From the NCBI GenBank assembly GCA_001782805.1, contig MFPT01000004.1, forward strand, positions 41,294-105,293: a stretch of DNA of 64,000 nucleotides, written 5' to 3'. Source of the stretch: Candidatus Magasanikbacteria bacterium RIFCSPHIGHO2_01_FULL_41_23 (GTDB lineage: Bacteria > Patescibacteriota > Patescibacteriia > Magasanikbacterales > UBA922). Numbering within the stretch: position 1 is the first letter of the stretch; every line of letters begins with the position of its first letter. Positions 11,717-63,571 of this stretch are shown piece after piece. A program made the translations under genes and the position numbers. The notes beneath the pieces are model-generated. The model searched no databases, was not told the DNA's origin, and saw only the letters and a list, made by a program, of their open reading frames with translations.

Positions 11717-11809
11717 AAGGTTTTAAGTAATTGACTATAGACGAATTATAGACGATTGTTGGACGATTGTCAATTGCTTCTCTGGGTTTTTTGTCCCGAC
11801 TTGACGGGA

Positions 11810-12646: not shown

Positions 12647-13699
12647 TTACAAATATTTTTCTTCACCCGCATCTTCCAATTCTTTCAACACATTTTTAAT
12701 TTCCGGAACAAAATCTTTGTGGCAAACCAAAAGCGCGTCCGGAGTATTTACGACCACAATTCCAGCCAAACCGATTGTTACCACTTTTTTTTGACTCTCT
12801 TCATTATATACCAAAGAGTCGCGAGTTTTTTTAACCAATATATTGCCGGACAAAAAATTATCTTCTTGCTTTGGTGACAGAGCTTCTTTCAACGCATACA
12901 AAGTTCCCGGATCACTCCAACCTAAATTTACCGGCATCACGACTGCGTCAGACAAAGACAGATGCTCAATAATCGCTTCATCAAATGAAAGCGTTGGTAA
13001 ATTTTTGTATTCACGATTAAGCGTGACTTCATCGCTCGCCATAATTTCCAAATTCCGCCACAGTTCAGGCTGAAAATCTTGATACCACTTAATCATGGTA
13101 TCCAAATCAAAAACAAAATAACCGGGATTCCATAACCATTCTCCACTGGCAAACATGGTGTCGCACAGGGATTTTTCCGGACGGTATTTCCAGCCCGCGA
13201 ACGAGCGATAGTTACCGACCGATTGTTCGCCCAGTTTAATCCAACCCAAATTATGATTGGCAAAACGCGGTTTTTCTCCAAAAAAAATAATCTTTGTCGG
13301 GTCAGCCGACACTAATTCTTCCGCGCGGTTCAAGACTGATTCAAATTCCTGTGGATGATCCACAAAATGATCTGACCAAATAATTGCGGCGGAGCCAGTC
13401 GCACCGCTTTTTTTTAAACGAACCAAAGTCAAACCAACGGCCGCGGCCAAATCACGACGACATGGTTCCGTCAAAATATGATCCTCTACGATTTCCGGAA
13501 TTTGTTTTTTTACCAGATCTTTGTACTGTTCATTCGTAATTATAAAAATATTTTCCCGACCAAAATTATTGACGCGTGTCATTGTCATTTGCAATGTTGA
13601 TTGTCCATCTTTAAAAAAACCAAACTGTTTCGGTGAATTTTTGCGACTTAACGGCCACAAGCGTGTGCCGGCTCCGCCCGCGAAAATTAAAATATTCAT
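12647..13699 (-). CDS. Sugar-phosphate nucleotidyltransferase (mannose-1-phosphate guanylyltransferase-like)
   Basis: N-terminal ILIFAGGAGTRLWPLS motif. About 350 aa. Confidence 0.75.
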   Translation of the reverse strand: MNILIFAGGAGTRLWPLSRKNSPKQFGFFKDGQSTLQMTMTRVNNFGRENIFIITNEQYKDLVKKQIPEIVEDHILTEPCRRDLAAAVGLTLVRLKKSGATGSAAIIWSDHFVDHPQEFESVLNRAEELVSADPTKIIFFGEKPRFANHNLGWIKLGEQSVGNYRSFAGWKYRPEKSLCDTMFASGEWLWNPGYFVFDLDTMIKWYQDFQPELWRNLEIMASDEVTLNREYKNLPTLSFDEAIIEHLSLSDAVVMPVNLGWSDPGTLYALKEALSPKQEDNFLSGNILVKKTRDSLVYNEESQKKVVTIGLAGIVVVNTPDALLVCHKDFVPEIKNVLKELEDAGEEKYL

Positions 13700-13704
13700 A
13701 AATG

Positions 13705-14235
13705 TTATCGCCAAAAAATAAAAGCAACAGTAGTGGCTAAAATCCAGCCCGCGACAATATCACGCGGATAATGCACGCCGGCAAATACGCGCGCCACACT
13801 GATGATTATTGCCCAAAAAAAATAAGAAAGTGCAATCGATGGCGCACTCGGCAGAAAAAAAATAAAATAAGCCAAAAGCGCGGACATTATCGCGTGATCT
13901 GAAGGCAATGATTTCCAATGGCTTAATGGCTTAATAATTTCCTTAACTTCAGGGAATTCTATAACCGGTCGACGATGCGGATATAACCAACCGAATAGCC
14001 AACTTAACCCCAGCGCCAAACCCGAACCCAATAAAAATTTACCGATCAAAAAAGAAAAATTAATCCATTCCCATGAAACGTGATCACCAATTTGCCAAAC
14101 CGCGGCTAACCCAATAGCAAAAATAGCATTCTTGGCAAAAAAAATCACCGCGCGATCAAAAAATTTCCAGCGACCGCTGTACCGATTCGCCAAGAAAAAA
14201 AGCTTGTGACTCCACGATAATTGCATAGTGTCCAT
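13705..14235 (-). CDS. PAP2-family phosphatase (undecaprenyl-diphosphatase-like membrane protein)
   Basis: Multi-TM. PAP2 motifs KxxxxxxRP-like, SLPSDHA and GVHYPRD. Confidence 0.75.
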   Translation of the reverse strand: MDTMQLSWSHKLFFLANRYSGRWKFFDRAVIFFAKNAIFAIGLAAVWQIGDHVSWEWINFSFLIGKFLLGSGLALGLSWLFGWLYPHRRPVIEFPEVKEIIKPLSHWKSLPSDHAIMSALLAYFIFFLPSAPSIALSYFFWAIIISVARVFAGVHYPRDIVAGWILATTVAFIFWR

Positions 14236-17860: not shown

Positions 17861-17981
17861 AAGTGTGTTGATTAAAATAAAAATGGAATCCCGACAAGTC
17901 GGGATAAACTCCTGTAGCTTTTTTGAGCCCGATATTTATGAGGGTCTCAGAAAAAGATTTGCAGTGAATTTTTATTTTAAT
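17861..17981. repeat. Type-2 MITE-like element (TIR TTAAAATAAAAAT, internal palindrome ATCCCGACAAGTCGGGAT) inserted in groES-groEL spacer
   Basis: About 95% identical to 43738-43860. A partial copy lies at 47031-47075. It widens the normally short groES-groEL gap to ~155 nt. Confidence 0.8.
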
Positions 17982-35562: not shown

Positions 35563-37509
35563 ATGCTTAAAAAAATCATCATTGGTTTTTGTTTCTTGTT
35601 TGGTATTTTTTTGTTTGAGAATCAAGCGCAGGCAGTTGATTCAACAAATAAAGCATCAAAATGTTGGACAAAAACAGCGTGTGAAAGTGCCAGAGCCGGA
35701 TTTGGCGGTGTTCCGGGCGAAGGTTTGTATACCGGATCTGATGCACAAGAATTGTGTGGAAAAGACCATCTAGTCCCCGGAGGTGGAAAAGAGCCTACTG
35801 GTTTTTGTCTGCCAGCCGGCCAATCAATCACCAAAATTTCCTTTGGTGGAAAACAAACATTTGCCAACTTCGGGGAATTTATCCAATACATTTACCGCTA
35901 TGGTATGTGGTTGGCCGGCATTCTGGCAGTTGCTTTTATTGTTATTTCCGGTTTGCAGTGGGCTGCTTCGGGTGGTAATTCTGATATGATCGGATCAGCC
36001 AAAAATAGAATTACCGGAGCCGTAACCGGACTTATTTTATTAGCACTGTCTTATACTATTCTTAGTACAATCAATCCATATTTGGTCCAATTACGTTTGC
36101 CACAAACCTGGATGATAAACAGAATTGGCATGGCCGCAGCGTTTTGTAGCGATGCAAAAGATGCAAAAATATCTCTTTTTACAAAATCTGATACTTCACA
36201 AATAGAAAAAGAAAAAATAAAAGCAACTAAATTGGCAGAGGTTGAAAGCAAAGGATATAAAGAAACATACCTAAATGCAAAATGTGGTTATGAGTATTTT
36301 GTGGATGGCACGTCCGGACAAACGTGCCAAGGGAATATTTGTGGAGGAGGAATATGTGGATCAGCAATCAAAGATAAAAAATTGACATCTAATAAAGTAT
36401 GCTACGAGGGTGATTTGATAATAAAATTTTCAGCAGACATGGCCAATAACTTTCTTTCCCAAGCTCCTTTTCTCGGTATTGGCTTCGCTCAACTTAAGGA
36501 TAAATGGCTGACTAATAATCTAGTAATATACGGAGTTTGTGAAATGCCAAATAATGGAGTCTGTTCATCTGACCAAACTATTAGCGGTGGTGAAAAAATA
36601 AAAATGAGTCAGAGCACTCTCGAGGGCGAAGTTCTCTCCAACTATTTACGAATATACCATGGGATTAGAGACCTTGGTGCCGGTACCTTTTGTAAAGATA
36701 CTGAATTAAAGAATTTAAAAGGAATAATAATAAAAACCGAACTTGACGAGAACTGGAAATTCACTGATCCTAATTTATACATTGCCATACCCTCGTCAGG
36801 AAATAACGCATACATAGGAGATTTTAAAACTGTTTTTGATAAAGTAAAAGCTGAAGATTCAGCTAAAGTATACGAAAGATTAAAGGTTGGTTTAGAATTA
36901 AATGCCCTCGTAACGTTTAACATGTTCTCCAAAATTTCTGATGAAGACTGGAGTGGACCAAATGATCTAGAATTCGAGGAGTTATGTAAAAATTACACAT
37001 CTAGTGAAGATGGTGCTGAAGTAAAATTAAAACTAAAAAAAGATACTGGTGGCTTCTGCTTCCTAGCTGGCACTGAAATTCTGACACCGGCTGGAAATAA
37101 AAAAATTGAAATGCTGGGAACCGGTGACGAAGTGATCTCTTATAATATTGAGGATGGTAGTTACCATATCGGAAAAATCGCTGGTGTACGCAAACAAAAT
37201 AGTGAAGCATATTATTTAATAAACCATGGCCTTCTTCGGGTCACTGATCAGCATCCTATATACTTAAGAAAGAAATCAAACAAACAAACTGGATGGGCGT
37301 CTAACAATCCTTCGGGGACACATAAATTAACTGGTCTAAACGTCATGCAATTAGAAGTTGGTGATGAAGTCTTTACAGATAACAAAAAATGGGTTAATAT
37401 CACAGATATTGTCCATATTTCAAAGGAAGTCGAGACCTATAATGTACTCAATGTTGAACCCTATAACACATACTTCGCAAACGGTATCCTAGTACACAAC
37501 AAAATATAG
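35563..37509 (+). CDS. Secreted Cys-rich protein: signal peptide + VirB2/TrbC-pilin-like double-TM segment + C-terminal Hint (intein/hedgehog-type) autoprocessing domain
   Basis: Signal peptide [24 protein letters not shown]. Hydrophobic pair [49 protein letters not shown] resembles conjugative pilin. More than 20 Cys in the extracytoplasmic part. C-terminal ~150 aa has Hint blocks [10 protein letters not shown] (A), RVTDQHPIY (B, TxxH), and [23 protein letters not shown] (F/G), ending VHNKI-stop. Confidence 0.75.
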
Positions 37510-43737: not shown

Positions 43738-43860
43738 GATTAAAATAAAAATGGAACCCCGACAAGTCGGGATAAACTCCTTAAGCTTTTTTGAGCCCGA
43801 TATTTATGAGGGTCTCAGAAAAAGATTTGCAGTGAATTTTTATTTTAATTTCCTTAGATG
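43738..43860. repeat. Type-2 MITE-like element, second full copy (immediately 3' of tRNA-Arg)
   Basis: About 95% identical to 17861-17981. Confidence 0.8.
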
Positions 43861-44270: not shown

Positions 44271-45548
44271 TTAACTGAGATCAAAACTTTTTTGTTCTGT
44301 TTTTTTTCTTTCATTATCACCAAAAACTTTGACCACGCCAAATATACCATCATATCCCGGTTTAACATAAATATTTCCCTCACGAACGCGGCCTAACGCT
44401 TCGGCAATTTCAGGCGACGACACTGTTTGCACAAGAGACAAATCAGCCTGAAGTAAAATATAAAATTCACTGCCGATTTTTTTAATTAACGTATCGTAAA
44501 TTTGTGTAACTGCTTTTGAACTCACGCCAACGCCAATAGTATCTGCAATAATCTCGGGCAAAGGCACCAAATTTTTAAATGGCACGCGATTTAAAGTGCG
44601 CGCCTCGATTTCTGTTCGCGTTGATAATTCCGCCACGCGATTCATGACACCAATGGTCAAACCACGTCCGCATTTTGGACACAGACCGCGGTATTTTTTC
44701 GTATCATTCGGCGGACAGGAAAATTCACAAGTCGCATGGCCATCATAATGATATTTTCCTTCTTCCGGATAAAATTCAATCGTGTATAAAAATTTCGCAC
44801 GATCGCCTGTTTCAATAATCCGCTTAATTTCCGCATACGTAATGTCGCTTTCTTGTTCAAAGGAAAAAACATTGGCTTCACGACCAAGTTTTTGTGGACT
44901 ATGCGCGTCAGAATTGGAAATTAAAGTGATTCCATCGACTGCCGGCACTTGCCAATTCATGAGTGGATCGCTGGATAATCCGGTTTCAATCGCGTGAATA
45001 TGCGGAGTTAAGTCTTCAAACGCGTCCGACAGTGAATCATAACCGCCTTTGGATCCAAAAATACCAAACCATGGTGTCCACGCATGAGCGGGAATTACCA
45101 TCATCTGCGGATCAGCTTCCAGCGCCACGGTCAAAATATCTTTGGAAGTCAAACCCAAAATCGGTCGGCCATCAGCGCGAATATTACAACCAAGTTCAGT
45201 TAATTTTTTATTAAATTTTTTGACAGCCGCAAAATTAGGCGCAAAAATTAAATGATGCACGCGCCGCAATTTACCCGCGTGTTTTTTAATTGAAGCAACT
45301 TCAGTCCCTAAAATGAAACGAGTTGATTCCGACCTGTCGGGATTATTTTTTAAGGAAAAAATTCCGGAAGCACTTTCAAATAATTCTTGTTCTAACATCT
45401 CCAACCATTGGGGATGCGTAAAATCGCCCGTAGAAACAATATCAATTCCCCGCGTAACACAGGCTCGCGCAATTGTTTCCGGTATCAAATTTTTGGAACA
45501 AGCGCGTGAATAGCGTGAATGAATATGAAGATCAAGAATTTTTTCCAT
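44271..45548 (-). CDS. PHP-domain protein with C4 zinc finger, endonuclease Q (EndoQ/TIGR00375)-like
   Basis: N-terminal PHP motif LDLHIHSRYS. Internal CEFSCPPNDTKKYRGLCPKCG zinc ribbon. 425 aa. Confidence 0.6.
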   Translation of the reverse strand: MEKILDLHIHSRYSRACSKNLIPETIARACVTRGIDIVSTGDFTHPQWLEMLEQELFESASGIFSLKNNPDRSESTRFILGTEVASIKKHAGKLRRVHHLIFAPNFAAVKKFNKKLTELGCNIRADGRPILGLTSKDILTVALEADPQMMVIPAHAWTPWFGIFGSKGGYDSLSDAFEDLTPHIHAIETGLSSDPLMNWQVPAVDGITLISNSDAHSPQKLGREANVFSFEQESDITYAEIKRIIETGDRAKFLYTIEFYPEEGKYHYDGHATCEFSCPPNDTKKYRGLCPKCGRGLTIGVMNRVAELSTRTEIEARTLNRVPFKNLVPLPEIIADTIGVGVSSKAVTQIYDTLIKKIGSEFYILLQADLSLVQTVSSPEIAEALGRVREGNIYVKPGYDGIFGVVKVFGDNERKKTEQKSFDLS

Positions 45549-45572: not shown

Positions 45573-46268
45573 TTATTCAGTACTCAATGATATATCTCGA
45601 TCACGAATTTGAATGCGCGCAATTTTTACTTCGGGAATTTCCACCACAAATGATTCGCCGATTATCCACATATCCAAATCATCATACAAAGCCACTGACA
45701 ATTCATTGGTACCGGGCAATACTGTAATATTATTCCAATTAGTTATTTGTTGACCGTTAATGGCCAGCCGCACTTTGTAATCGGTTAAATGTGATTCAAC
45801 TTCAATGGTCAACGGCCGGCGATAAGCCGGTAATTTTTTTTGTACTAATGTGTTAATACTGTTCGCAATCCGATCATAACGCCAACGAGACAAAGCACCA
45901 GTAATGAACGACTGTCCCAAATTACTTTTGGTAATCACATTAGTGCCGATAATCAAAGAAATGGAATCGCCGCCACGATCATACACTTCTTTAGTTTTAG
46001 TTTTAATGGTAGAAAAAAAATACCAACGCAACGTAGTATACACAGTGTTCATTTCTTTTTGCGAAACTGAAAAATTAACTTTTTGTTCAACACCATTATA
46101 ATAATGCTGATACACGCCGCCATTAGTGGACAGATCAATGTGTGTTCTTTCCGGATACAGACCGCCATCACGATCATACTGAACATGCAAATCAGTTGGC
46201 AGAGCGCCCAAAAGCAGATGTGGCACGAGCACACCTACCACAACACTAATGACCAAAAAATTCTTCAT
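45573..46268 (-). CDS. Hypothetical secreted protein
   Basis: Signal-peptide-like N-terminus MKNFLVISVVVGVLVPHLLLGA. No motifs recognised. Confidence 0.45.
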   Translation of the reverse strand: MKNFLVISVVVGVLVPHLLLGALPTDLHVQYDRDGGLYPERTHIDLSTNGGVYQHYYNGVEQKVNFSVSQKEMNTVYTTLRWYFFSTIKTKTKEVYDRGGDSISLIIGTNVITKSNLGQSFITGALSRWRYDRIANSINTLVQKKLPAYRRPLTIEVESHLTDYKVRLAINGQQITNWNNITVLPGTNELSVALYDDLDMWIIGESFVVEIPEVKIARIQIRDRDISLSTE

Positions 46269-46283
46269 AAAAATATTACAGAA

Positions 46284-47033
46284 TCACACGGACGTTGTTC
46301 CAATATATTCAATATCTTCCGGAGTCAATCGTCGGATCCCTTCATCGTTAGTTATTTCTTCAACAATATGGGCAACGAGTCCGGGAACGCGGGCAATTAC
46401 AAATATACCATTTCCTATGCGCGCGTCAAAGCCCATATCACAAAGAATTGCCGCAATCGCGCCATCAACATTCAGTGGAAGTTTTTTGGATGAAATTGAA
46501 TTTAATCCGATTTCAATTTTTTGGGCAAACGTCGCATACTGACCATATATCCCAGTTTCTTTGGCAATTTTAAACAATGCTTGCGTACGCGGATCAACTG
46601 CAAAAATTTTGTGACCAAATCCGGACGCATATTCTTTGCGTTCCTTCATATTTTTAAGAAGTGCTACGATATCAGACTCGTCAACATGATCATAAAAAAA
46701 TTTCATCGCCGGTTCAACTACCACACCATGCCGACCACCCAGTCCAAGCAAACCGGCCGCAACCGAAGTGTGCAAATCATTTTTGGCCGAAGCCGAAATT
46801 CGGGCGTTCATCGCCGAACTTGTTGCCGGACCATGATCAATGATCGCGGTAAAAATGGCATTCATCATTTTTGTTTGTTCCGAAGTCGGTAAATGACCTT
46901 TCAAAATCAAAAAAATTGTTTCGACAAAAGTTTTGTTGGCAATTAAATCCGCCAAATTATGTCCACGAATAATTTCCGTGCCGTCGGTTTGAATGTTCGT
47001 GATTGCGGTTTTGAATTTCATATTAATTGTCAA
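46284..47033 (-). CDS. Citrate-synthase-like protein (citryl-CoA lyase-like / ATP-citrate lyase C-terminal-domain-like)
   Basis: 249 aa. Citrate-synthase catalytic motifs SGFGHKIF (GxGHxV His) and VDPRTQAL (DPR Asp). No full-length citrate synthase large domain. Confidence 0.6.
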   Translation of the reverse strand: MTINMKFKTAITNIQTDGTEIIRGHNLADLIANKTFVETIFLILKGHLPTSEQTKMMNAIFTAIIDHGPATSSAMNARISASAKNDLHTSVAAGLLGLGGRHGVVVEPAMKFFYDHVDESDIVALLKNMKERKEYASGFGHKIFAVDPRTQALFKIAKETGIYGQYATFAQKIEIGLNSISSKKLPLNVDGAIAAILCDMGFDARIGNGIFVIARVPGLVAHIVEEITNDEGIRRLTPEDIEYIGTTSV

Positions 47034-47077
47034 AATAAAAATGGAATCCCGACATGTCGGGATTATTTTAATCTAAA

Positions 47078-47968
47078 TTAAGAATGGGGTTTGATTAATA
47101 GAACTAAATCTTCGTATTTCTCCGCAATCATCACCCCAACATCACTCAACGCCTTTTCTTTTTCCACCGCGCCTTTCCCCTTCTCCACAATCGCGCCGGC
47201 ATGACCGATATTCATTCCCTCCGGGAGGATATTCGCGAATTTTCCCCCAATATAGATAGCGAGTGGTTTAGTATATTCGTCATTATTGATTAAGTCAACA
47301 ATCTCAAATTCATAACTGCCGCCGTGTTCGCCAAAAATAACCACGGCTTTTGTCTGATCATCTTTTTCAAATAAACGTAGTAAATCAGCATAAGTTGTAC
47401 CCATCAACAAATCACCGCCCACATGCACGGCTGTGCTTTGGCCCAAGCCAGCCTGGCGCAATTGCCATGAAATTTCATTGGTCATCCCACCGGAACGAGA
47501 AATTACTCCAATTGATCCAGGAGAAAAAATTTCATTAACCAATGGACCACCGACCACGCCAATGCGTCCAACTCCCGGAGAAATAAAACCGAGTGAACTG
47601 GGACCAATAATGGTAATATTTTTTTCTTTGGCCGCGGCCAAACAATAAGCTGTATCTTTAATGGGAATGCGTTCCACGATCGTGTTGATTAAGGGAATGT
47701 CGTTATTAATTGCTTCCAAAATTGCGGCTTTGGCCGCAAATGGTGGAACATAAATTGCGCTGATATTTATTTCAGGAAATTGCGTTTTGGCTTCAGTAAT
47801 GAAATTAAATACCGGTTTACCTTCCACTTCTTGACCAGCCTTATTGGGAGTAACGCCACAGACTACATTGGTGTTATAATCCAACATCGCGCGCGCGGCT
47901 TTGGCGCCTTCTTTGCCCGTAATCCCTTGGACGAGAACGTGAGTTTGAGTAGTGATGAGAATACTCAT
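47078..47968 (-). CDS. Succinyl-CoA-synthetase alpha-like CoA-binding/phosphohistidine subunit
   Basis: CoA-binding Rossmann fold N-terminus and phosphohistidine loop MNIGHAGAIV. Confidence 0.8.
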   Translation of the reverse strand: MSILITTQTHVLVQGITGKEGAKAARAMLDYNTNVVCGVTPNKAGQEVEGKPVFNFITEAKTQFPEINISAIYVPPFAAKAAILEAINNDIPLINTIVERIPIKDTAYCLAAAKEKNITIIGPSSLGFISPGVGRIGVVGGPLVNEIFSPGSIGVISRSGGMTNEISWQLRQAGLGQSTAVHVGGDLLMGTTYADLLRLFEKDDQTKAVVIFGEHGGSYEFEIVDLINNDEYTKPLAIYIGGKFANILPEGMNIGHAGAIVEKGKGAVEKEKALSDVGVMIAEKYEDLVLLIKPHS

Positions 47969-47969
47969 A

Positions 47970-49154
47970 TTATTTTTTCTTTATCATTTCGGCCAATACT
48001 TCGGCCGTCTCACTCATGCTCGTTTCTTTACCAAAAATTTTCATATTCAAATTATTTCTGATCGCGCATTCCTGCATTAAAGTTAAACCTTCTTTTTCAA
48101 ACGGCCCGGCACGACGAACGACAATCGGATAGTTTGGTTTTATTTCATCAAGCACGTCCGCGATTCCCTGAAATGTTTCCGCGATATTCGTAAAATTCGC
48201 GACTCCGCCCGCAATCCACAATCCACGCAAATTTGGTTTGGATAAAACAATTTTCGCCAGCGCGTAGACTTTTTCACGTGGCGGATTGCCGGAATATTCC
48301 GTGTAATTCGCCGGCTTCAATCCGGTTTTTAAAAGCGCGTCCATATTAGCGATACTGGCTCCGCCTCCGGAAAACAAAATCGCGATATCTCCATCCATTT
48401 CCATATATTTTCCCGCTGTTCCTTGATAATATTTTTCACCTTCGTCAATTTTTTTCACGGCAATTTCGCGTTCAGTCGGAGCACGACCAAGCATCGTGCG
48501 CGGTTCCAATACTTCCCATTCTTTATGTTTGTAAAAAGCATCATCATCCAGCGCCACTTTAGCATCGGCCGCAATCCAACGACCGTCCACGGTCTTGATT
48601 AAAGGATTAATTTCCACGACACGCGTGTCTTCGGCCAAAAAACAATTCCACAATGATCGCGCGATCGGTTCAAGATTTTCATTACTAAAATCATTATGTA
48701 AAGTTGATAATAATGTAATCTCACTATTACGTACATCCAATCCAATTTTGACAATCTTTTCTTCCGCCACATCTTCAATATCCATTCCTCCGGATTGCGA
48801 ATAAATCAGCATCGGCTGTTTTCTATTGGTATCGTACGTAATGGAAATATAATGTTCTTCGGCAATATTTAATTTTTCTTCAATCAGCACCGCGGACACA
48901 TATTGTCCGCGAATGTTTATGGTGAACAATGTATCACAGACTGTACGAACTTCTTCGGACGAACCACAAAATTTAATCCCGTTATTTTTGCCACGTTTTC
49001 CTGACAACACTTGGGCTTTAACTACAACGTCTTTAATTCCCAACTCATTATATTTTTGTATCGCATCATCACCACGACGAACAACAACCCCTTTTGGAAT
49101 CGCGATACCATGTTTTTTAAATAATTGTTTGCCTTCAAATTCGTAGAGGTTCAT
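47970..49154 (-). CDS. Succinyl-CoA-synthetase beta-like ATP-grasp subunit
   Basis: MNLYEFEGKQLFKKHGIAIPKG ATP-grasp N-terminus. About 395 aa. Confidence 0.8.
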   Translation of the reverse strand: MNLYEFEGKQLFKKHGIAIPKGVVVRRGDDAIQKYNELGIKDVVVKAQVLSGKRGKNNGIKFCGSSEEVRTVCDTLFTINIRGQYVSAVLIEEKLNIAEEHYISITYDTNRKQPMLIYSQSGGMDIEDVAEEKIVKIGLDVRNSEITLLSTLHNDFSNENLEPIARSLWNCFLAEDTRVVEINPLIKTVDGRWIAADAKVALDDDAFYKHKEWEVLEPRTMLGRAPTEREIAVKKIDEGEKYYQGTAGKYMEMDGDIAILFSGGGASIANMDALLKTGLKPANYTEYSGNPPREKVYALAKIVLSKPNLRGLWIAGGVANFTNIAETFQGIADVLDEIKPNYPIVVRRAGPFEKEGLTLMQECAIRNNLNMKIFGKETSMSETAEVLAEMIKKK

Positions 49155-50789: not shown

Positions 50790-51113
50790 TTATAAATCCA
50801 ATCTAAATTCTTTTCCATAATCCGTAAATCCGAGCCGTTGATACCAATCATGGATTTCGCTACGACTGTAGCGACTCGTGGAAACTAATTTATAACATCC
50901 TTTTTCACGCGCGCTCGCAATAAGCGCTTCAATTAATTTTTTACCAATTCCTTTTTTCCTATATTCTTCTACTACAAACAAATCTTCTATCAAGCCGAAT
51001 GATTCTTTATGAAGATCATTTTTTAAAAGATATAAATACACATGGCCGATTTCTTTGCCATTCTCATTTTCCGAAAAACGAATCGCTTTTGTGGTTAATT
51101 CAGTTTGCGTCAT
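50790..51113 (-). CDS. GNAT-family N-acetyltransferase
   Basis: VVEEYRKKGIGKKLIEALIASARE (Q/RxxGxG/A motif A). Confidence 0.75.
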   Translation of the reverse strand: MTQTELTTKAIRFSENENGKEIGHVYLYLLKNDLHKESFGLIEDLFVVEEYRKKGIGKKLIEALIASAREKGCYKLVSTSRYSRSEIHDWYQRLGFTDYGKEFRLDL

Positions 51114-52087
51114 ACCATCACACTATATAAAACCTCACTTAATTTTTGACTGTCATGCCGAATCAAACTACGCATCAAAACATCGCCATTTTCTTTATTA
51201 ACTTCGACCAAATTAATTATATCACGTCTAATAATCTCCATAGTCTTATCAGAAAGATCATCAATAATCGGATATTCTCCTCGTTCTGAATATTTATCCA
51301 AAATATGCGCAGGAAACGAAGTATTATTTACAACAATGACATCAGGTTTCCGACCGGAATAGCGAGTAATTTCACCGACCAAATCCGTGGCCGTAAAATT
51401 ATGCGTCTGGCCATATTTGGTCATCAAATTATTAATAAAAATAAATTTCGCCTGGCTCTCCACAATAGCAGCGGAAATTCCGGGAATAATAATATTGGCC
51501 AAAACACTCGTATATAAATCACCCGGACCCGCGATAATTATATCCGCCTCTTTAATGGCTTCTATAGCCACGACATAAGCTTGAACTGGAGTTGATAACG
51601 ACAATTGTTTTACATGACCCAAATTCGGAATTCCCGATTCTTCAATAGAATGTTCGCCTTCAATTCTCTGACCCGTATAATATTCGGCGATTAAATTTGT
51701 TTGACCCAAAGTAACCGGAATAATGATGCCTTTCACCTGAAATAATTCCGACAAACGCTGAATCGCGATTAATTCCGATCCGCCCATATCGGCCAATGCC
51801 AGCATCATCAAATTTCCCAATGTGTGACCAGACAAACCTTCGCCTTTGGCAAAACGATACGTAAATAATTCGCGCAATAATTGATTATCGGTTTCCGCGA
51901 GCGCAATAATTGATTTACGGACATCAGACAGTGGCAACAAACCAAATTCATCGCGCACCACTGCGTTACTGCCACCATCATCAGTCATGCTTACAATAAC
52001 GCTCAATTCCATATCAGAATATTTTTTTAATCCGGAGAGAACAGGAACCGTGCCTGTTCCTCCACCGATAACCACTATTTTTTTCAT
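51110..52087 (-). CDS. yvcK: Gluconeogenesis factor YvcK (UPF0052/CofD-like)
   Basis: MKKIVVIGGGTGTVPVLSGLK N-terminus and family length. Confidence 0.8.
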   Translation of the reverse strand: MKKIVVIGGGTGTVPVLSGLKKYSDMELSVIVSMTDDGGSNAVVRDEFGLLPLSDVRKSIIALAETDNQLLRELFTYRFAKGEGLSGHTLGNLMMLALADMGGSELIAIQRLSELFQVKGIIIPVTLGQTNLIAEYYTGQRIEGEHSIEESGIPNLGHVKQLSLSTPVQAYVVAIEAIKEADIIIAGPGDLYTSVLANIIIPGISAAIVESQAKFIFINNLMTKYGQTHNFTATDLVGEITRYSGRKPDVIVVNNTSFPAHILDKYSERGEYPIIDDLSDKTMEIIRRDIINLVEVNKENGDVLMRSLIRHDSQKLSEVLYSVMV

Positions 52088-52093
52088 AAAAAA

Positions 52094-53914
52094 TTATTCA
52101 ACCGTAACCGATTTAGCTAAATTCCGCGGCCGATCCACGTCTTTACCCAAAATGACCGCCATGTGATACGCGAATAATTGCAACGGAATGGTATTTATTA
52201 ACGGCTCCAATAATTCCATTGTTTCCGGAACATAAATCACATCATCCGCCAGTTCCAGTGCGCGATCGTCGCCCTTTGTAGCCAATAAAATCACTTTCGC
52301 GCCACGCGCCCGCACTTCTTCCACATTGCTGCGCATTTTTTCATACAATTGATTTTTGGTCATAATCGCGAACACAGGAAATTCCGGACACAACAATGCT
52401 AATGGCCCATGTTTCATTTCTCCGCCAGGGAATGCTTCGCTGTGAATATAAGAAATTTCTTTTAGCTTTAGTGACCCTTCCAACGCCACGGAAAAATTAA
52501 TGCCGCGTCCCAAAAACATCATATTGTGATAGTCGGAATATTTTTGCGCGACTTTTTTAATCTCTTCACTTAATTCCAAAGTCTCTTTCATTTTTTGCGC
52601 CACTTCACGCAAAGCATCAACAACACGCAAGCCAGTCGCGAGCGATAACCGACGTAAACGACCAAATTGCAAAGCATATAAAATCAAAACCGCGATCATA
52701 TTAGTATACGCTTTAGTGGAAGCGACAGCTAATTCCGGGCCGGCATGAATGTAAGTACCACCATCCGTTTCGCGCGCAATAGTTGAACCAACCGCGTTCA
52801 CAATTCCCCGCACCACTGCGCCGCGACGTTTCGCTTCACGCACTGCGGCCAAAGTATCAGCTGTTTCTCCTGATTGAGAAATGGCAAAAACTAATGTGTG
52901 ATTGTCAATGACCGGATCGCGATACCGAAACTCACTGGCCACATCAACTTCGGCCGGAATTCCCGCCAAACGTTCAAACGCGTATTTCCCGGCCATAGCC
53001 GCGTATGATGTTGTGCCGCAGCCGATAAAAATAACCCGATTAATATCGCGTATTTGATTATCCGTTAAATTAATTCCCCCCAAACGCGCCGTGCCATCGA
53101 TGATATTATAGCGACCACGAATCGCGTCTTGAAAAACCGTGGGCTGATCATAAATTTCTTTAAGCATAAAATGCGCGAAGCCTTGTTTTTCCGCCTGCGC
53201 TTCATCCCAATCAATTTTCTCCACGCGCTTCTGTATATGTTCATGGCGCACATTAAACGTTTTAATTGTCTCACGACTGACTTCGGCGATTTCACCATCA
53301 TCCAAAAAAACCACTTGATTGGTATAAGCTAAAATCGGCGTGGCATCGCTGGCAATATAATGTTCATTTTCACCAACTCCAATGACGAGCGGACTACCCA
53401 TTCTCGCTGCGATCAATTTGTCGGGATGATCAGCATGCGTCACTACTAATCCATATGTTCCTCGCACCTGCGCGAGCGCAGTTTCCACTGCCTGACGCAA
53501 ATCACCGGAATAATATTTTCCAATCAAATGCACCAACACTTCGGTATCAGTTTGCGAAACAAATGATACATCGAGTAATTGATTTTTTAATTCGCGATAA
53601 TTTTCAATAATACCATTATGCACAATCATCAATTTCCCATTTAAAGCGCTGTGCGGATGCGCGTTGGCTTCAGTCACTCCACCATGCGTGGCCCAACGCG
53701 TGTGTGCGATCCCCATCGTCCCCAACAATTCCTGATCTTTTAGTTTTTCCGATAAAATATCAATTTTACCCATGGTTTTCACGCGATTCAATCCGCCATT
53801 ATTTAAAATCGCCACGCCCGCGCTGTCATAACCGCGATATTCCAAACGACGCAATCCGCGCAACAAAATCGGCAAGGCCGGTTCTTTTCCAATATAAGCA
53901 ATTATTCCGCACAT
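52094..53914 (-). CDS. glmS: Glutamine--fructose-6-phosphate aminotransferase
   Basis: MCGIIAYIG Ntn amidotransferase start, two SIS domains. 606 aa, with C-terminal ...KSVTVE. Confidence 0.95.
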   Translation of the reverse strand: MCGIIAYIGKEPALPILLRGLRRLEYRGYDSAGVAILNNGGLNRVKTMGKIDILSEKLKDQELLGTMGIAHTRWATHGGVTEANAHPHSALNGKLMIVHNGIIENYRELKNQLLDVSFVSQTDTEVLVHLIGKYYSGDLRQAVETALAQVRGTYGLVVTHADHPDKLIAARMGSPLVIGVGENEHYIASDATPILAYTNQVVFLDDGEIAEVSRETIKTFNVRHEHIQKRVEKIDWDEAQAEKQGFAHFMLKEIYDQPTVFQDAIRGRYNIIDGTARLGGINLTDNQIRDINRVIFIGCGTTSYAAMAGKYAFERLAGIPAEVDVASEFRYRDPVIDNHTLVFAISQSGETADTLAAVREAKRRGAVVRGIVNAVGSTIARETDGGTYIHAGPELAVASTKAYTNMIAVLILYALQFGRLRRLSLATGLRVVDALREVAQKMKETLELSEEIKKVAQKYSDYHNMMFLGRGINFSVALEGSLKLKEISYIHSEAFPGGEMKHGPLALLCPEFPVFAIMTKNQLYEKMRSNVEEVRARGAKVILLATKGDDRALELADDVIYVPETMELLEPLINTIPLQLFAYHMAVILGKDVDRPRNLAKSVTVE

Positions 53915-53917
53915 ATT

Positions 53918-55105
53918 TTAAGAAATTAAAGAATACTTTTTGCCTAGACTGGCAAACGTCGCTACCAATTGATCAATTTGTTCATGCGTATGTGCCGCGG
54001 AAATTTGCACGCGAATACGCGCTTTGCCCATGGGTACAACCGGATAACTAAATCCAATTACATAAATTCCTTGTGCCAACATTTCGCGGGCAATATCACT
54101 GGCAACTTTTCCGTCGCCAATCATCACAGGCACAATCGGGTGAACATCTTGAGGCACCGTAAATCCGGCCACAATCATTTTAGCGCGGAAATAATTCGTG
54201 TTATCCCAAATCTGCGCGCGCAATTCCGGATGAGCTTCAATGAAATCCAAGACAAACATTGTCGTCGCGGCGATTACCGGAGGCACAGTGTTGGTAAATA
54301 ATGTGGTACGCGCACGTTGGTGAAACAAATCAATAATATCTTTTTGCCCGGCAATACAACCACCATTCGCTCCGCCCAGCGCTTTACCAAAAGTAGTGGT
54401 AATCAAATCCACTCGATCAATTACTCCGCAGGCCTCCACTGCACCTCGACCAGTTTCACCCATAAATCCAGTCGCGTGCGAATCATCCACCACCACATAC
54501 GCATTATATTTTTCCGCCAAATCACAAATTTCTTTGAGGGGCGCGATGTGCCCATCCATGCTAAACACGCCATCGCTCACCACACAGCGCAATCTTTTTT
54601 CTTGCGTGAATTTTAATTTTTCTTCCAAGTCAGCTAGATCGCGATGTTTAAACACGTGGCGCTCGGCTTTGCACAAACGAATCCCGTCGACAATACTGGC
54701 ATGATTCAATTCATCAGAAATCACTGCGTCAGCATCAGTCAAAAGCGTGGCAAACACGGCCTCATTTGCATCCCAACACGACGTAAAAATTATCGCATCA
54801 TCCTTATGCAAAAATTCCGCAATCTTTTTTTCCAATTCTTTGTGAACAGTTTGCGTACCACAGATAAATCGAACTGATGACAAACCATATCCGTATTTGT
54901 CCAACGCGTTTTTGGCATATTCCACCAATTCTTCACGGCCAGACAAACCCAAATAATTATTGGCGCAAAAATTCAAAACTTCTTTCCCATTCACACGCAC
55001 ATTGGTGCCCTGACGCGATTCCAAAACCCGATGTTCTTTGTACAGCCCAGCCGATTGAATTTCCGCAAGTGTTTGTTGGACAATTTTTTCTAAGTTTTGA
55101 TTCAT
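53918..55105 (-). CDS. kbl: Glycine C-acetyltransferase (2-amino-3-ketobutyrate CoA ligase)
   Basis: Class II aminotransferase alpha-oxoamine synthase family (NNYLGLS...). Adjacent to tdh. Confidence 0.8.
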   Translation of the reverse strand: MNQNLEKIVQQTLAEIQSAGLYKEHRVLESRQGTNVRVNGKEVLNFCANNYLGLSGREELVEYAKNALDKYGYGLSSVRFICGTQTVHKELEKKIAEFLHKDDAIIFTSCWDANEAVFATLLTDADAVISDELNHASIVDGIRLCKAERHVFKHRDLADLEEKLKFTQEKRLRCVVSDGVFSMDGHIAPLKEICDLAEKYNAYVVVDDSHATGFMGETGRGAVEACGVIDRVDLITTTFGKALGGANGGCIAGQKDIIDLFHQRARTTLFTNTVPPVIAATTMFVLDFIEAHPELRAQIWDNTNYFRAKMIVAGFTVPQDVHPIVPVMIGDGKVASDIAREMLAQGIYVIGFSYPVVPMGKARIRVQISAAHTHEQIDQLVATFASLGKKYSLIS

Positions 55106-55111
55106 ATAAAA

Positions 55112-56284
55112 TTATTTTTGGATAGCAAAAACCAACTTGGGATGTTCATTCATTTTTGCTTCAACCAATTCCGATGAAAATTCAGACAACGGAATAATTG
55201 TGCCATTACCTTGTTTCATAATCACATTCCACATTGCGTCTTGAATTCCATTGGTTTTATCAGACAGGACACGCTGCGCAATCTGCCAAGTCTTAAAAAT
55301 TTGTCGGCCAATAATATTATGCAAAGTAAAACCTTTAACAATCATACGAGAAAAATGAGGAATCGTAAAATCACCATCTTTGATACCAAATAAAATAATT
55401 TGGCCACCAAATCGCGTGGCTTCAATGCAATTATTTACTGACGAATTAAATCCAGCCATTTCCAAACTTACATCAACGCCTTTGTCATACGTAAGTTCCT
55501 GAATTTTTTTAATTACTCCAGCGTCAGCATCATACAAATTTGTTTTTGCCAAACTAGGATCAATCTGAATAGTTTCGTGCGCACCAAGTTGTTTAGCTAA
55601 AGCCAAGTTGGCCGGATTAACATCGACCGCAATAATTTTTGAAGCGCCAAAATGCCGCGCCAATAAAATCGCAAACATGCCAATCTGTCCTGCGCCGAAA
55701 ATCGCCACGCGAGCGCCGCGCACATCCACTTTTGTCAAAGCGTGCACGGCATTGCCAAATGGATCAAAGAGCGCGCAGATTTCCGGACGAATGCGATTAA
55801 AATCCACGGCCCACAAATTTTTGGCCGGAATTTTGACATATTCCGCATAAATTCCATCCGTACTAATTCCCAAAATCGCTTGATCCTGACACACTTCTTC
55901 TTCACCCAAACGACACTGATAGCATTTGCCACACGTAACATGCGAATCGCCCGACACATTACTCCCAATGTGAATGTCATAATAAGTTGATTCCACAAGC
56001 GAGCCGGCCGCGACCACTTCGCCCACAAATTCATGCCCCAAAATCCGCAAAGTTTTGTTTTGTTTTGCCAATGCGCCCGCAAACATTTCGGTAAAAGCGA
56101 CGCGTGTCCAAATACCGCGATCAGAGCCACACATGCCAGCGTATTTTACTTTCACAATGACCGACAAAGCGTCGACAGGATTATTGGTTTCATCCAATTC
56201 CGGCATGGCAATTTGGCGCTTGATAAATCCGCGCGAAGTTGTCCAGCCGTCGGTTTTAATATCGAGAGTAAGAGCGCTGATCAT
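55112..56284 (-). CDS. tdh: L-threonine 3-dehydrogenase (Zn-dependent MDR family)
   Basis: GHEFVGEVVAAG zinc-ADH motif, Rossmann GAGQIGMFA. Forms the tdh-kbl pair. The N-terminus is probably shorter than the ORF. Confidence 0.8.
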   Translation of the reverse strand: MISALTLDIKTDGWTTSRGFIKRQIAMPELDETNNPVDALSVIVKVKYAGMCGSDRGIWTRVAFTEMFAGALAKQNKTLRILGHEFVGEVVAAGSLVESTYYDIHIGSNVSGDSHVTCGKCYQCRLGEEEVCQDQAILGISTDGIYAEYVKIPAKNLWAVDFNRIRPEICALFDPFGNAVHALTKVDVRGARVAIFGAGQIGMFAILLARHFGASKIIAVDVNPANLALAKQLGAHETIQIDPSLAKTNLYDADAGVIKKIQELTYDKGVDVSLEMAGFNSSVNNCIEATRFGGQIILFGIKDGDFTIPHFSRMIVKGFTLHNIIGRQIFKTWQIAQRVLSDKTNGIQDAMWNVIMKQGNGTIIPLSEFSSELVEAKMNEHPKLVFAIQK

Positions 56285-56301: not shown

Positions 56302-57060
56302 TTATAGTAAAATTTCCGCTGTTTTCAAATCAGCTTGGGAATTAATCCCCACAGCTTCTTGTGGTTCAATGCTAATCGAGGAAATTTTAGCGCCTTGTTC
56401 AATTGCCAATTGAATTAAATCAGTCAAATAATATTCTTGTTGCGCATTATTATTTTTTAAAGTTTTAATATTGTCCCATAACCAATCACTTTTAAAACAA
56501 TAAACGCACGGATTTAATTCCGTAATATTCAATTCTTCCGGTGTACAATCTTTTTTCTCAATGCTCCGTACAATGTGTCCATCAGCGCCACGAATTACTC
56601 GGCCAAATGTCAAAAACGCCGCACGCCAATCAGAAAAATCAGGAACAGTAACCGTCATCATAGTGATAGTATTATTACGTTCAATATGTCTCTCTACCAA
56701 TCGTCTGACCGAATCACCGGATATAAATGGCATATCACCGTATAAAATCACAATGTTGCTCACTTCACTGCGCAATTGTTGTTCGGCAACAGCCACCGCG
56801 TGTCCGGTTCCCAATCGTTCAACTTGCACCGCATAATCGGCACGCTTGCCTAAAAAATTCTGCACTGACGGATCGTCATTACAAACAATTACGGTCGGCT
56901 TGCGATCAAACTGGACTTTTTCGACTGTACTGACTACATAATCAATTAACGGCTTACCGTGCAACAAGTGCATGACTTTGAGCATTGTGCTATTCATACG
57001 CCTGCCCAAACCAGCGGCCAAAATAATCGCGCCGATAGTTTTTTTATTTTGTTCATTCAT
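56302..57060 (-). CDS. NTP_transferase-fold nucleotidyltransferase (GlmU N-terminal-like / MobA-like)
   Basis: GAIILAAGLGRRMNS...GKPLI signature. 252 aa. Confidence 0.55.
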   Translation of the reverse strand: MNEQNKKTIGAIILAAGLGRRMNSTMLKVMHLLHGKPLIDYVVSTVEKVQFDRKPTVIVCNDDPSVQNFLGKRADYAVQVERLGTGHAVAVAEQQLRSEVSNIVILYGDMPFISGDSVRRLVERHIERNNTITMMTVTVPDFSDWRAAFLTFGRVIRGADGHIVRSIEKKDCTPEELNITELNPCVYCFKSDWLWDNIKTLKNNNAQQEYYLTDLIQLAIEQGAKISSISIEPQEAVGINSQADLKTAEILL

Positions 57061-62066: not shown

Positions 62067-62103
62067 TTTTTAAAAAAACCACAGAAATAAAAAAGATCCA
62101 AAT

Positions 62104-62209
<106 letters not shown>

Positions 62210-62570
62210 ATTTGAATCTCTTTTATCCCGCCGAAGTCCGAAGGACAAAGGCGGGGTTTTGTTTAGGATTTGGGTAATTAAAGCCCTGTACGGGCTTGAA
62301 AAGCACAACTAAGTGCTTCTGTAGTGTTGGGTCAATTAGTACGCCTCGGCATACACCTAGCGCCTATCAATCTGGTCGTCTACCAGAGACCTCATAACGA
62401 ATATTAATCTTAAGAACGGCTTCGCACTTAGATGCTTTCAGCGCTTATCCGTGCCGAACTTAGCTACCCAGCTATGCCTTGCGGACAACTGGCACACCAG
62501 AGGTTCGTCAATCCCGGTCCTCTCGTACTAGGGATTGGTTCTCTCAATATTCAACGCCCACAGCAGATAG

Positions 62571-62622
<52 letters not shown>

Positions 62623-62635
62623 TGGCGAACAGCCA

Positions 62636-62666
<31 letters not shown>

Positions 62667-62681
62667 CGATGAGCCGACATC

Positions 62682-63037
62682 GTACTTTGTTCCACAGTTT
62701 CTTGTGGCGTAGACTATATCTTCTTCTTGCTCTGGATGGTAGCGGATGCCGACAAGTCGGCACGTGATCCGCGTAATCTCAGTTTGACTGTGCAAGAGTC
62801 GGCGTGTTGTCTCTCCTGATCATTAATCAGGAAAAACCTCCCCTTTCGGGTCAGTCGTTACGGGGTTATCCCGACATTGTCGGGAAACTTCCCACGGTAT
62901 TGCCGGGTGATTGTGGGTCAATCACTGACGGGTTCACCGTTATAAGCCGAATTTGTGTCTCTTAATCTATCTAAATTTAAAATTTTAACGAAAAGAATTG
63001 GGATAAACATTACTGTTTGTGCACCCCGATATGTTAA
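62682..63037 (-). mobile_element. ORF-less group I-type intron in 23S rRNA at the peptidyl-transferase centre (about E. coli position 2500)
   Basis: ~355-nt insertion between exon sequences GGCACCU and CGAUGUCGG. Contains group I S-element-like AAGAAGATATAGTCTAC and R-like GAGATTA. Confidence 0.7.
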
Positions 63038-63571
63038 GGTGCCAAACCGCGCCGTCGCTGTGGACGCTTGGGCGCGATCAGCCTGTTATCCCCGGAGTAG
63101 CTTTTATCCGTTGAGCTTCCGCCGTCCTATATCGTACGGTCGGATCACTAACTTCCGCTTTCGCGACTGATCGGGTGGTAGCCCTTTCAGTAAAGCTGGC
63201 TTTTGCGTTTGCACGTCCAGTCCGATTTCCATCCGGACTAAGCCAACCTTTGTAAACGCCTCCGTTACATTTTGGGAGGCAACCGCCCCAGTTAAACTAC
63301 CCATCAGATACTGTCTCTCTATCCTGATTCAAGGACAAAGATTAGATACATCGCTACGCAAGGGTGGTATCTCACTGACTCCCGACTTTCGTCGGGATCC
63401 CACCTATGCTGAACAAGCGAAGCAATGCACCAATATCAAACTATAGTAAAGCTTCACGGGGTCTTTTCGTCTAGTTGCGGGTATGTCGCATCTTCACGAC
63501 ACTTGCATTTTCGCCGAGTACATCGTCAAGACAGTCCACTCATCATTATGCCATTCGTGCGGGTCGGAACT

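Follow-up and report, generated by a model that had tools for sequence, protein, structure and literature searches.

Predicted genes for citryl-CoA synthetase and for citryl-CoA lyase in a Candidatus Magasanikbacteria genome

The three genes and their products

The stretch of DNA analyzed here (64 kb in total, henceforth the window) belongs to a metagenome-assembled genome of Candidatus Magasanikbacteria (Patescibacteria, or candidate phyla radiation, CPR) from Rifle groundwater. Three consecutive open reading frames (ORFs) on its minus strand, which a first-pass annotation had singled out and which are all present in an ORF check, encode the predicted large (beta-type) subunit of a citryl-CoA synthetase (CCS; ccsA-like, 47970..49154, 394 amino acids (aa)), the predicted small (alpha-type) subunit of the same enzyme (ccsB-like, 47078..47968, 296 aa) and a predicted citryl-CoA lyase (CCL; ccl, 46284..47021, 245 aa). 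In the record of the source genome, each of the three products is labelled 'hypothetical protein'. From the domains present, the conserved residues, the affinities in trees and structures, the lack of a gene fusion and the conserved synteny, we predict that the trio constitutes a Hydrogenobacter-type system in which two enzymes cleave citrate at the expense of ATP, a reading to which we assign a probability of roughly 0.8.

The large subunit starts at ATG 49154 (MNLYEF), where the mechanical ORF list uses GTG 49166 instead, and is identical to database protein P0121 (394 aa; 100% identity, 100% coverage). There is an overlap between this ATG and the end of the RluA-type gene upstream, at its stop codon. 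A single nucleotide lies between the ccsA stop codon and the ccsB ATG, and the spacer between ccsB and ccl measures 56 nt. For ccl, the real start is ATG 47021 (MKFKT), as indicated by alignment with homologues and by the gene call in the database (P0001, 245 aa). The motifs GFGHK and VDPR, reported earlier for this gene, are indeed present, but the length of 249 aa reported along with them results from the alternative start TTG 47033 and is to be corrected to 245 aa.

The large subunit combines an ATP-grasp domain (Pfam ATP-grasp_2, 9e-44) with a citrate-binding domain (Citrate_bind PF16114, 2e-30; 106 bits, cut-off 26.8) and has no Pfam match to the Ligase_CoA domain. Its score against the NCBIfam SucC model, 248.6 bits, remains under the cut-off of 370 bits. 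The best match in the PDB is the CCS large subunit of Hydrogenobacter thermophilus (6hxq_B; 2.7e-65, 224 bits), followed at some distance by the best chain of succinyl-CoA synthetase (SCS) beta (5e-48) and by AclB, a subunit of the ATP-citrate lyase (ACL) of Chlorobium (1.7e-42, 149 bits). When the C-terminal domain is considered alone, CCS ranks first, followed by bacterial ACL, archaeal ACL, human ACL (ACLY) and SCS.

The substrate site points in the same direction. At positions 309, 346, 347, 348, 378 and 379, counted along the ACLY alignment, the window protein reads GNFTRR, which is identical to the human, Chlorobium and Methanothrix ACLs. The same six sites read GNNTRR in H. thermophilus CcsA and GG[IV][TV]R[LV] in the SCS-beta chains. 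SCS-beta thus has G where ACLY has N346, and either L or V where ACLY has R379, whereas the window protein keeps N and R. A structure check shows that G309, N346, T348 and R379, reportedly the citrate ligands of ACLY (Sun et al. 2010), line its ligand pocket.

Placement of the large subunit among SucCD, AclAB and CcsAB, proposed at first pass as a check, was carried out by neighbour-joining (NJ) on 134 sequences, comprising the window protein, those of the 150 top-ranking cluster representatives of an exhaustive HMMER search that are full length, and references taken from the PDB alignments. A capped distance was used for very divergent pairs, and 200 bootstraps were run for the full length and for the C-domain. 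In both cases, the window protein together with CcsA and AclB is separated from three SCS-beta sequences in 100% of bootstraps, placing it outside SCS-beta. The citrate clade in this tree comprises 68 members and has a support of 0.91. Within it, the window protein groups more closely with AclB than with H. thermophilus CcsA at moderate support (0.76 for the full length, 0.64 for the C-domain). The CPR large subunits form a clade of their own, apart from every characterised reference.

The small subunit contains the Pfam domains CoA_binding and Ligase_CoA and a phosphohistidine loop, GHAGA, whose histidine is H256; the surrounding motif, MNIGHAGAIV, is present as first described. Its score of 281.7 bits falls under the SucD equivalog cut-off of 336 bits. 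Moreover, two indels are common to the window protein, all 70 of 70 CPR homologues, H. thermophilus CcsB and five CcsB sequences from Nitrospirota/Leptospirillia. One of these CcsB-type indels is a segment that is kept (GGPLVNEIF, GGKDPSVAY), and the other is a loop of greater length ahead of the phosphohistidine; SCS-alpha references carry deletions at both sites.

The third protein passes the NCBIfam citryl-CoA lyase model NF004869 (256.8 bits, cut-off 212), and its best PDB match is H. thermophilus CCL (6hxp; 5e-58, 45% identity), while far weaker matches are obtained with ACL's CCL modules (4e-24) and with citrate synthases (1e-21 at best). The Pfam match extends over positions 162-355 only of the 357 in the citrate-synthase profile. 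The N-terminal part is therefore missing, in agreement with the initial statement that the large citrate-synthase domain is absent. The catalytic residues H63, H137 and D186, together with R145 and R211 (245-aa numbering), correspond to H274, H320 and D375 and the citrate-binding arginines of citrate synthase (CS), and the lyase sites map onto the published catalytic residues H491 and D543 of Chlorobium AclA (PMC13147460). In 118 close homologues, the two arginines and the three catalytic residues, whose conservation the first-pass annotation had marked for checking, are invariant, save for the first histidine, which is Asn in 4 of them. Homologues in total number well over a hundred, at 45-80% identity. 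An AlphaFold model of the lyase (pLDDT 87.7) has 6hxp as its top Foldseek match over the whole length (template-modelling (TM) scores 0.88/0.84), followed by the CCL modules of ACL (TM about 0.85), and it covers citrate synthases only about half (TMt 0.42-0.50). Given the NF004869 score, the retained catalytic residues and the full-length match to 6hxp, the protein is considered an intact CCL rather than a fragment or pseudogene product.

The Asn variant (IDNGPA instead of IDHGPA) occurs in P0011, P0031, P0069 and P0114 (for instance in locus L005, 10001-10729) at the position equivalent to H274 of CS and H900 of ACLY, with the other catalytic residues intact. As P0114 was seen on 13 contigs, it does not represent a sequencing error.

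In summary, the proposal that these genes encode CcsAB plus Ccl, or a split ACL, rather than an ordinary succinyl-CoA synthetase is supported by PF16114, the fully supported bootstrap split, the CcsB-type indels and the NF004869 score: the large subunit lies outside SCS-beta and the lyase is intact.

Architecture and distribution

A stop codon sets the alpha-type gene apart from the CCL gene, making them two ORFs, and none of the CPR loci inspected has the two fused. Since the fusion of the alpha part with CCL, which defines AclA, is absent, the architecture is that of CCS plus CCL and not that of AclAB.

A scan of species-representative genomes revealed a CCL relative in at least 476 species. 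Among the best 80, Magasanikbacteria predominate, accompanied by Uhrbacteria, Harrisonbacteria and other Patescibacteria; relatives from Nitrospirota, Leptospirillia and one Aquificota genome (Persephonella) come next, with 46-48% identity to the window lyase. All three genes occur together in 76 of 86 loci, the remaining loci being cut by contig ends, and in the relatives the small-subunit gene is always found between the large-subunit gene and the lyase gene. In the Nitrospirota/Leptospirillia/Nitrospira loci (L077-L081), the order is ccsA-ccsB-icd-ccl, with icd encoding a monomeric isocitrate dehydrogenase (IDH; PF03971, 1276 bits). Unlike these clusters, the CPR loci contain no isocitrate dehydrogenase gene inside the cluster.

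Many species-representative records with Magasanikbacteria-like trio loci (50-73% lyase identity, same synteny) are titled 'uncultured Gammaproteobacteria bacterium' (L007, L011, L017, L020, L021 and others), and one (L066, P0179) is titled 'Candidatus Udaeobacter sp.'. These titles look unreliable, or the bins contaminated.

Unrelated genes on the same strand, spanning 0.4-2.2 kb, separate ccsA from ccsB or ccsB from ccl in many CPR relatives, with the gene order kept (L005, 8106-9110; L030, 3407-5005; also L037, L039, L040, L050, L013, L024, L009, L041 and others). They encode a LemA and TPM-domain pair (6 loci), NUDIX and HAD proteins, methyltransferases, a GIY-YIG protein, a transposase-like protein and small proteins that are secreted or lie in the membrane. 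The idea that these inserts encode a conserved accessory protein, a transporter for instance, was rejected on account of their heterogeneous contents.

The arrangement of the genes also bears on the strongest competing explanation, a 'split ACL' in which the three proteins form a non-covalent, ACL-like holoenzyme that channels citryl-CoA. Chemistry and products would be the same, and only the quaternary organisation would differ. The ACL-type GNFTRR site, distinct from the GNNTRR of H. thermophilus CcsA, is consistent with such a complex, as are the bootstrap values that group the window protein with ACL against CcsA and SCS, and the superposition of the lyase model on the CCL core modules of ACL. 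On the other hand, the alpha and CCL genes are separated by a stop codon and a 56-nt spacer and remain unfused throughout the CPR loci examined, the lyase is far nearer the free H. thermophilus CCL than the ACL modules, and the large subunit scores higher against H. thermophilus CcsA than against AclB. Additionally, the frequent presence of unrelated genes between the subunit genes of relatives argues against tight co-translational assembly. On balance, we consider a split ACL unlikely.

In the Hydrogenobacter-type system that we favour, ATP would be bound in the ATP-grasp domain of CcsA and His256 of CcsB would be phosphorylated. The phosphate would subsequently be passed from His256 to citrate in the citrate-binding domain of CcsA, and citryl-CoA would be made with CoA held by CcsB. 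In a second step, the separate Ccl, which has the citrate-synthase fold without its N-terminal part, would split citryl-CoA into acetyl-CoA and oxaloacetate by means of its His/His/Asp triad.

Genomic neighbourhood and proposed role

Genomic context was counted over 66 CPR-type loci. Upstream of the trio and on the same strand, a gene for a GNAT acetyltransferase is found in 45 of the 66 loci, of which some 53 extend far enough upstream to show it; YvcK is encoded upstream in 40 and GlmS in 33. From these counts, the commonest order is GlmS-YvcK-GNAT-ccsA-ccsB-ccl. In the window, the GNAT gene (50790..51113, minus strand; 107 aa, Pfam Acetyltransf_1) lies two genes upstream of ccsA, with a methyltransferase gene and then the RluA gene in between, a pair present in only 16 of the 66 loci. 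Further upstream on the minus strand follow genes for a YvcK-type protein binding UDP-N-acetylglucosamine (UDP-GlcNAc; 51110-52087, NCBIfam TIGR01826, 268 bits, above the cut-off of 196), for GlmS (52094-53914; NCBIfam, 799 bits, above 381), for the glycine C-acetyltransferase Kbl (53918-55105; NF005394, 577 bits, above the equivalog cut-off of 460) and for a Tdh-like dehydrogenase, which scores below the cut-off of the Tdh model (55112-56284; 254 versus 380 bits). The next gene on this strand (56302-57060, 252 aa) encodes only the uridylyltransferase half of GlmU.

For this last gene, the GlmU models match approximately positions 2-235 of 447, and there is no match to the acetyltransferase half. 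Another candidate glucosamine-1-phosphate acetyltransferase in the window, a protein with NTP-transferase and beta-helix domains (12647-13714), was rejected, as it is a mannose-1-phosphate guanylyltransferase. The small GNAT is a candidate consumer of acetyl-CoA; its PDB matches include the glucosamine-phosphate N-acetyltransferases 1i12/1i21 (1e-5) and 3t90 (2e-4), which we count as weak evidence. Together, the truncated GlmU and the GNAT may provide a eukaryote-like GNA1 route to UDP-GlcNAc. The Tdh/Kbl pair converts threonine to glycine and acetyl-CoA, and it would be a second source of acetyl-CoA. Genes for Kbl and Tdh are also found near the trio in L003, L047, L053 and L072.

By Pfam, the called genes of the window serve housekeeping, the envelope and transport, and additionally encode a class I aldolase and PGI. 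No conventional citrate synthase is seen among the Pfam labels of these genes, and neither the 64-kb window nor the CPR loci contain genes for 2-oxoglutarate:ferredoxin oxidoreductase, fumarate reductase, aconitase or IDH, the partners expected of a reductive tricarboxylic acid (rTCA) cycle. At the level of Pfam and for the called genes, the earlier remark that the window holds no other TCA enzymes is therefore upheld. Downstream of the trio, a gene for a 231-aa protein (45573-46268) has no family match and is not kept beside the trio in relatives. It is followed by a gene for a 425-aa protein of the TIGR00375 family (44271-45548; PF27218 MJ0043_C), which scores below the NCBIfam cut-off (192 versus 327 bits). 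A member of this family is encoded after the lyase, either directly or past a variable gene, in about 45 of the 66 CPR-type loci.

Because rTCA genes do not accompany the trio, and because its neighbours make or use acetyl-CoA or serve the UDP-GlcNAc pathway, its role appears to be the supply of acetyl-CoA rather than CO2 fixation. The conserved GlmS-YvcK-GNAT-ccsA-ccsB-ccl order, combined with half a GlmU and with Tdh/Kbl, likewise suggests an acetyl-CoA supply module. We infer that the net direction is cleavage and that citrate comes from outside the cell, be it from a host or from the environment. The trio would then provide acetyl-CoA, and oxaloacetate as a C4 compound, from scavenged citrate, and this acetyl-CoA possibly feeds the N-acetylation of amino sugars. 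The suggestion made at first pass, that citrate cleavage is a source of acetyl-CoA in a host-dependent organism, fits this acetyl-CoA-centred neighbourhood and is plausible, although reached by inference. Tentatively, and with odds well short of even, we propose that the CCS/CCL of Magasanikbacteria and related CPR lineages has moved from carbon fixation into the GlmS-YvcK-GNAT-ccsA-ccsB-ccl array, where scavenged citrate would serve as acetyl donor for amino-sugar N-acetylation, the GNAT, weakly similar to eukaryote-type GlcN-6-P N-acetyltransferases, would replace the absent half of GlmU and Tdh/Kbl would be the second source. Citrate cleavage would in that case be a supply line for cell-wall precursors in an organism whose available sequence gives no hint of a TCA cycle.

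Several observations weigh against the assignment of the trio to citrate cleavage by CCS and CCL. In the PDB comparison, the small subunit scores higher against archaeal SCS-alpha (245 and 225 bits) than against H. thermophilus CcsB (209 bits). In the tree of this subunit, the CPR, CcsB and SCS-alpha sequences form three clades with no supported sister relation. The phylogenetic check suggested for the small subunit therefore has a divided outcome: the CcsB-type indels and the score below the SucD cut-off favour CcsB, but the tree gives no placement among CcsB and SCS-alpha. Furthermore, the trees are NJ trees with few labelled references. No citrate transporter family is recognisable by Pfam among the called genes of the 64-kb window. 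Finally, the reaction is near equilibrium, with -5.9 kJ/mol for CCS and -2.1 kJ/mol for CCL (PMC13147460), and its direction can for that reason not be read from sequence.

The enzymes might accordingly run in reverse in vivo, making citrate, CoA and ATP from acetyl-CoA, oxaloacetate, ADP and Pi as an ATP-conserving citrate synthase. For the Desulfobacter postgatei ATP-citrate lyase, such a reverse reaction was reportedly put forward in 1987 by Moller, Schauder, Fuchs and Thauer. The summed free energy of merely about -8 kJ/mol toward cleavage (PMC13147460) would permit it, and the apparent lack of a conventional citrate synthase in the window is compatible with it. Neither the window nor the CPR loci, however, show an aconitase or IDH to use the citrate, and since such downstream enzymes are lacking, this direction seems very unlikely. 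In addition, a fermenter would presumably gain the same ATP from acetyl-CoA via acetate-forming enzymes with oxaloacetate unspent, and the neighbouring genes are acetyl-CoA consumers and amino-sugar genes.

It is also highly improbable that the substrate is a hydroxy-acid other than citrate, such as 2-methylcitrate, malate or another tricarboxylate. The separation of the CPR clade from every characterised reference, the Asn in place of the first catalytic histidine in a few lyase homologues and the inclusion of methylcitrate synthases in the citrate-synthase family leave room for this idea. It is countered by the retention of all four ACLY pocket positions and of H137, R145, D186 and R211 in the lyase, which moreover passes the curated CCL model. 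An ordinary SucCD next to a decayed citrate-synthase fragment, as the top-listed NCBIfam models (SucC and SucD), the archaeal SCS-alpha as best PDB match of the small subunit and the name 'succinyl-CoA synthetase beta subunit' given to relatives in some databases might suggest, is hardly credible in view of the missed cut-offs of both subunits, the lack of Ligase_CoA in the large one, its complete bootstrap separation from SCS-beta, the replaced SCS-type substrate-site residues, the CcsB-type indels and a third gene that is full length relative to CCL, well conserved among its many homologues and confidently modelled.

Some features of the window do not concern the function of the trio directly. 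The ccsB-ccl spacer contains a palindromic hairpin followed by a T-run (47045..47064, minus strand), a terminator-like site composed of AATCCCGACATGTCGGGATT and CCATTTTTAT. With an RNA fold z of -2.6, this hairpin is possibly a partial terminator or an RNA-stability element. Its palindrome, TCCCGAC-NN-GTCGGGA, occurs in 6 copies in the window (11794-11809, 17889-17904, 43757-43772, 45327-45342, 47047-47062 and 62747-62762), versus 0.2 expected, and 4 of the 6, the spacer copy included, lie just past gene ends. It has the look of a hairpin motif used throughout the genome, be it a terminator or a REP-like element. A role of the spacer hairpin as an operon-specific regulator was rejected, given the recurrence of the same palindrome at other gene ends, and terminator-like sites around the trio are no commoner than expected by chance.

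Near the end of the window, a 5S rRNA gene (62103-62209) and the 3' part of a 23S rRNA gene (62328-63504) were identified. The 23S match corresponds to model positions 2046-2912 (867 positions) spread over 1177 nt, and the roughly 300 extra nt suggest that the 23S gene is interrupted by an insertion or intron, a feature known from CPR rRNAs. For the rest of the 23S gene, farther upstream, the window's final 500 nt give no match. Adjoining UvrA, the region 35563-37509 encodes a 648-aa protein with a weak T4SS_pilin and a faint Hint_2 (intein-like) Pfam match.

Comparison with known systems

The characterisation of CCS and CCL dates from 2004, and the structures 6hxq and 6hxp were released in 2019. 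As a kind of enzyme, the trio is thus not new; it represents known enzymes in an unusual, non-rTCA context. CCS/CCL is normally read as a marker of the rTCA cycle in Aquificae-type autotrophs, and surveys of rTCA genes place it in Aquificaceae-type autotrophs, leaving CPR unmentioned (PMC9802188; PMC13147460). A 2022 preprint reports that sequences from CPR and DPANN bearing SCS or CS annotations are monophyletic with CCS and CCL (10.1101/2022.10.25.513756), and PGAP and JGI already label relatives 'citryl-CoA lyase' and 'citryl-CoA synthetase large subunit'. No paper pairing citryl-CoA with Magasanikbacteria was found in the library searched. Nor did we encounter any discussion of a link between the trio and UDP-GlcNAc genes, although no search was aimed at that linkage; the conserved GlmS-YvcK-GNAT-ccsA-ccsB-ccl order with half a GlmU and Tdh/Kbl looks unreported.

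The occurrence of an intact, well-conserved and syntenic trio in many CPR species, with no TCA genes in the inspected neighbourhoods, implies that surveys based on marker genes can wrongly count it as carbon fixation or take it for 'SCS plus citrate synthase'. Host-dependent CPR bacteria may by this route draw C2 and C4 units together from citrate, and the linkage to UDP-GlcNAc genes offers a testable idea on the origin and fate of acetyl-CoA in organisms thought to be short of central metabolism.

Compared to the CCS/CCL of H. thermophilus, the trio has the same three polypeptides, i.e. a large subunit with a citrate-binding domain, a phosphohistidine-bearing alpha subunit and a free CCL. H. 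thermophilus CcsA and CCL are the best PDB matches, with the lyase 45% identical, and the alpha indels are common to both systems. In contrast, H. thermophilus is a thermophilic rTCA autotroph, whereas the window derives from a mesophilic CPR bacterium with a small genome and carries no rTCA genes. The small subunit, at 296 aa, lacks the C-terminal extension of H. thermophilus CcsB (353 aa), the large subunit reads ANFTN, as in ACLs, where H. thermophilus CcsA reads ANNTR, and the CPR sequences form their own clade. With the clusters of Leptospirillia and Nitrospirota, the trio has in common the order large subunit, small subunit and, further on, lyase, as well as 46-48% identity in the lyase. 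For their large subunits, however, identity to that of the window drops to only about 30%, and their monomeric IDH gene between ccsB and ccl, an rTCA context, has no counterpart here.

The machinery of ATP-grasp and CoA-binding/phosphohistidine domains and the acyl-phosphate mechanism are homologous to those of SucCD. The trio differs from SucCD in the citrate-binding type of its C-terminal substrate domain, in the substrate-site residues and alpha indels, and in missing the SucC and SucD cut-offs. AclAB (EC 2.3.3.8; Chlorobium limicola, 6hxj; Methanothrix, 6hxi) agrees with the trio in chemistry, domain set and the GNFTRR site, in the moderate tree affinity of the large subunit to AclB and in a lyase fold that matches the CCL core of ACL. 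Unlike AclA, in which the alpha part and the CCL module form one polypeptide, the window has separate genes, and its lyase is much nearer free CCL than the ACL modules. These likenesses and differences bear on the evolutionary series leading from CCS/CCL through ACL to citrate synthase, as the CPR large subunit places an ACL-type citrate site in an unfused, CCS-type architecture.

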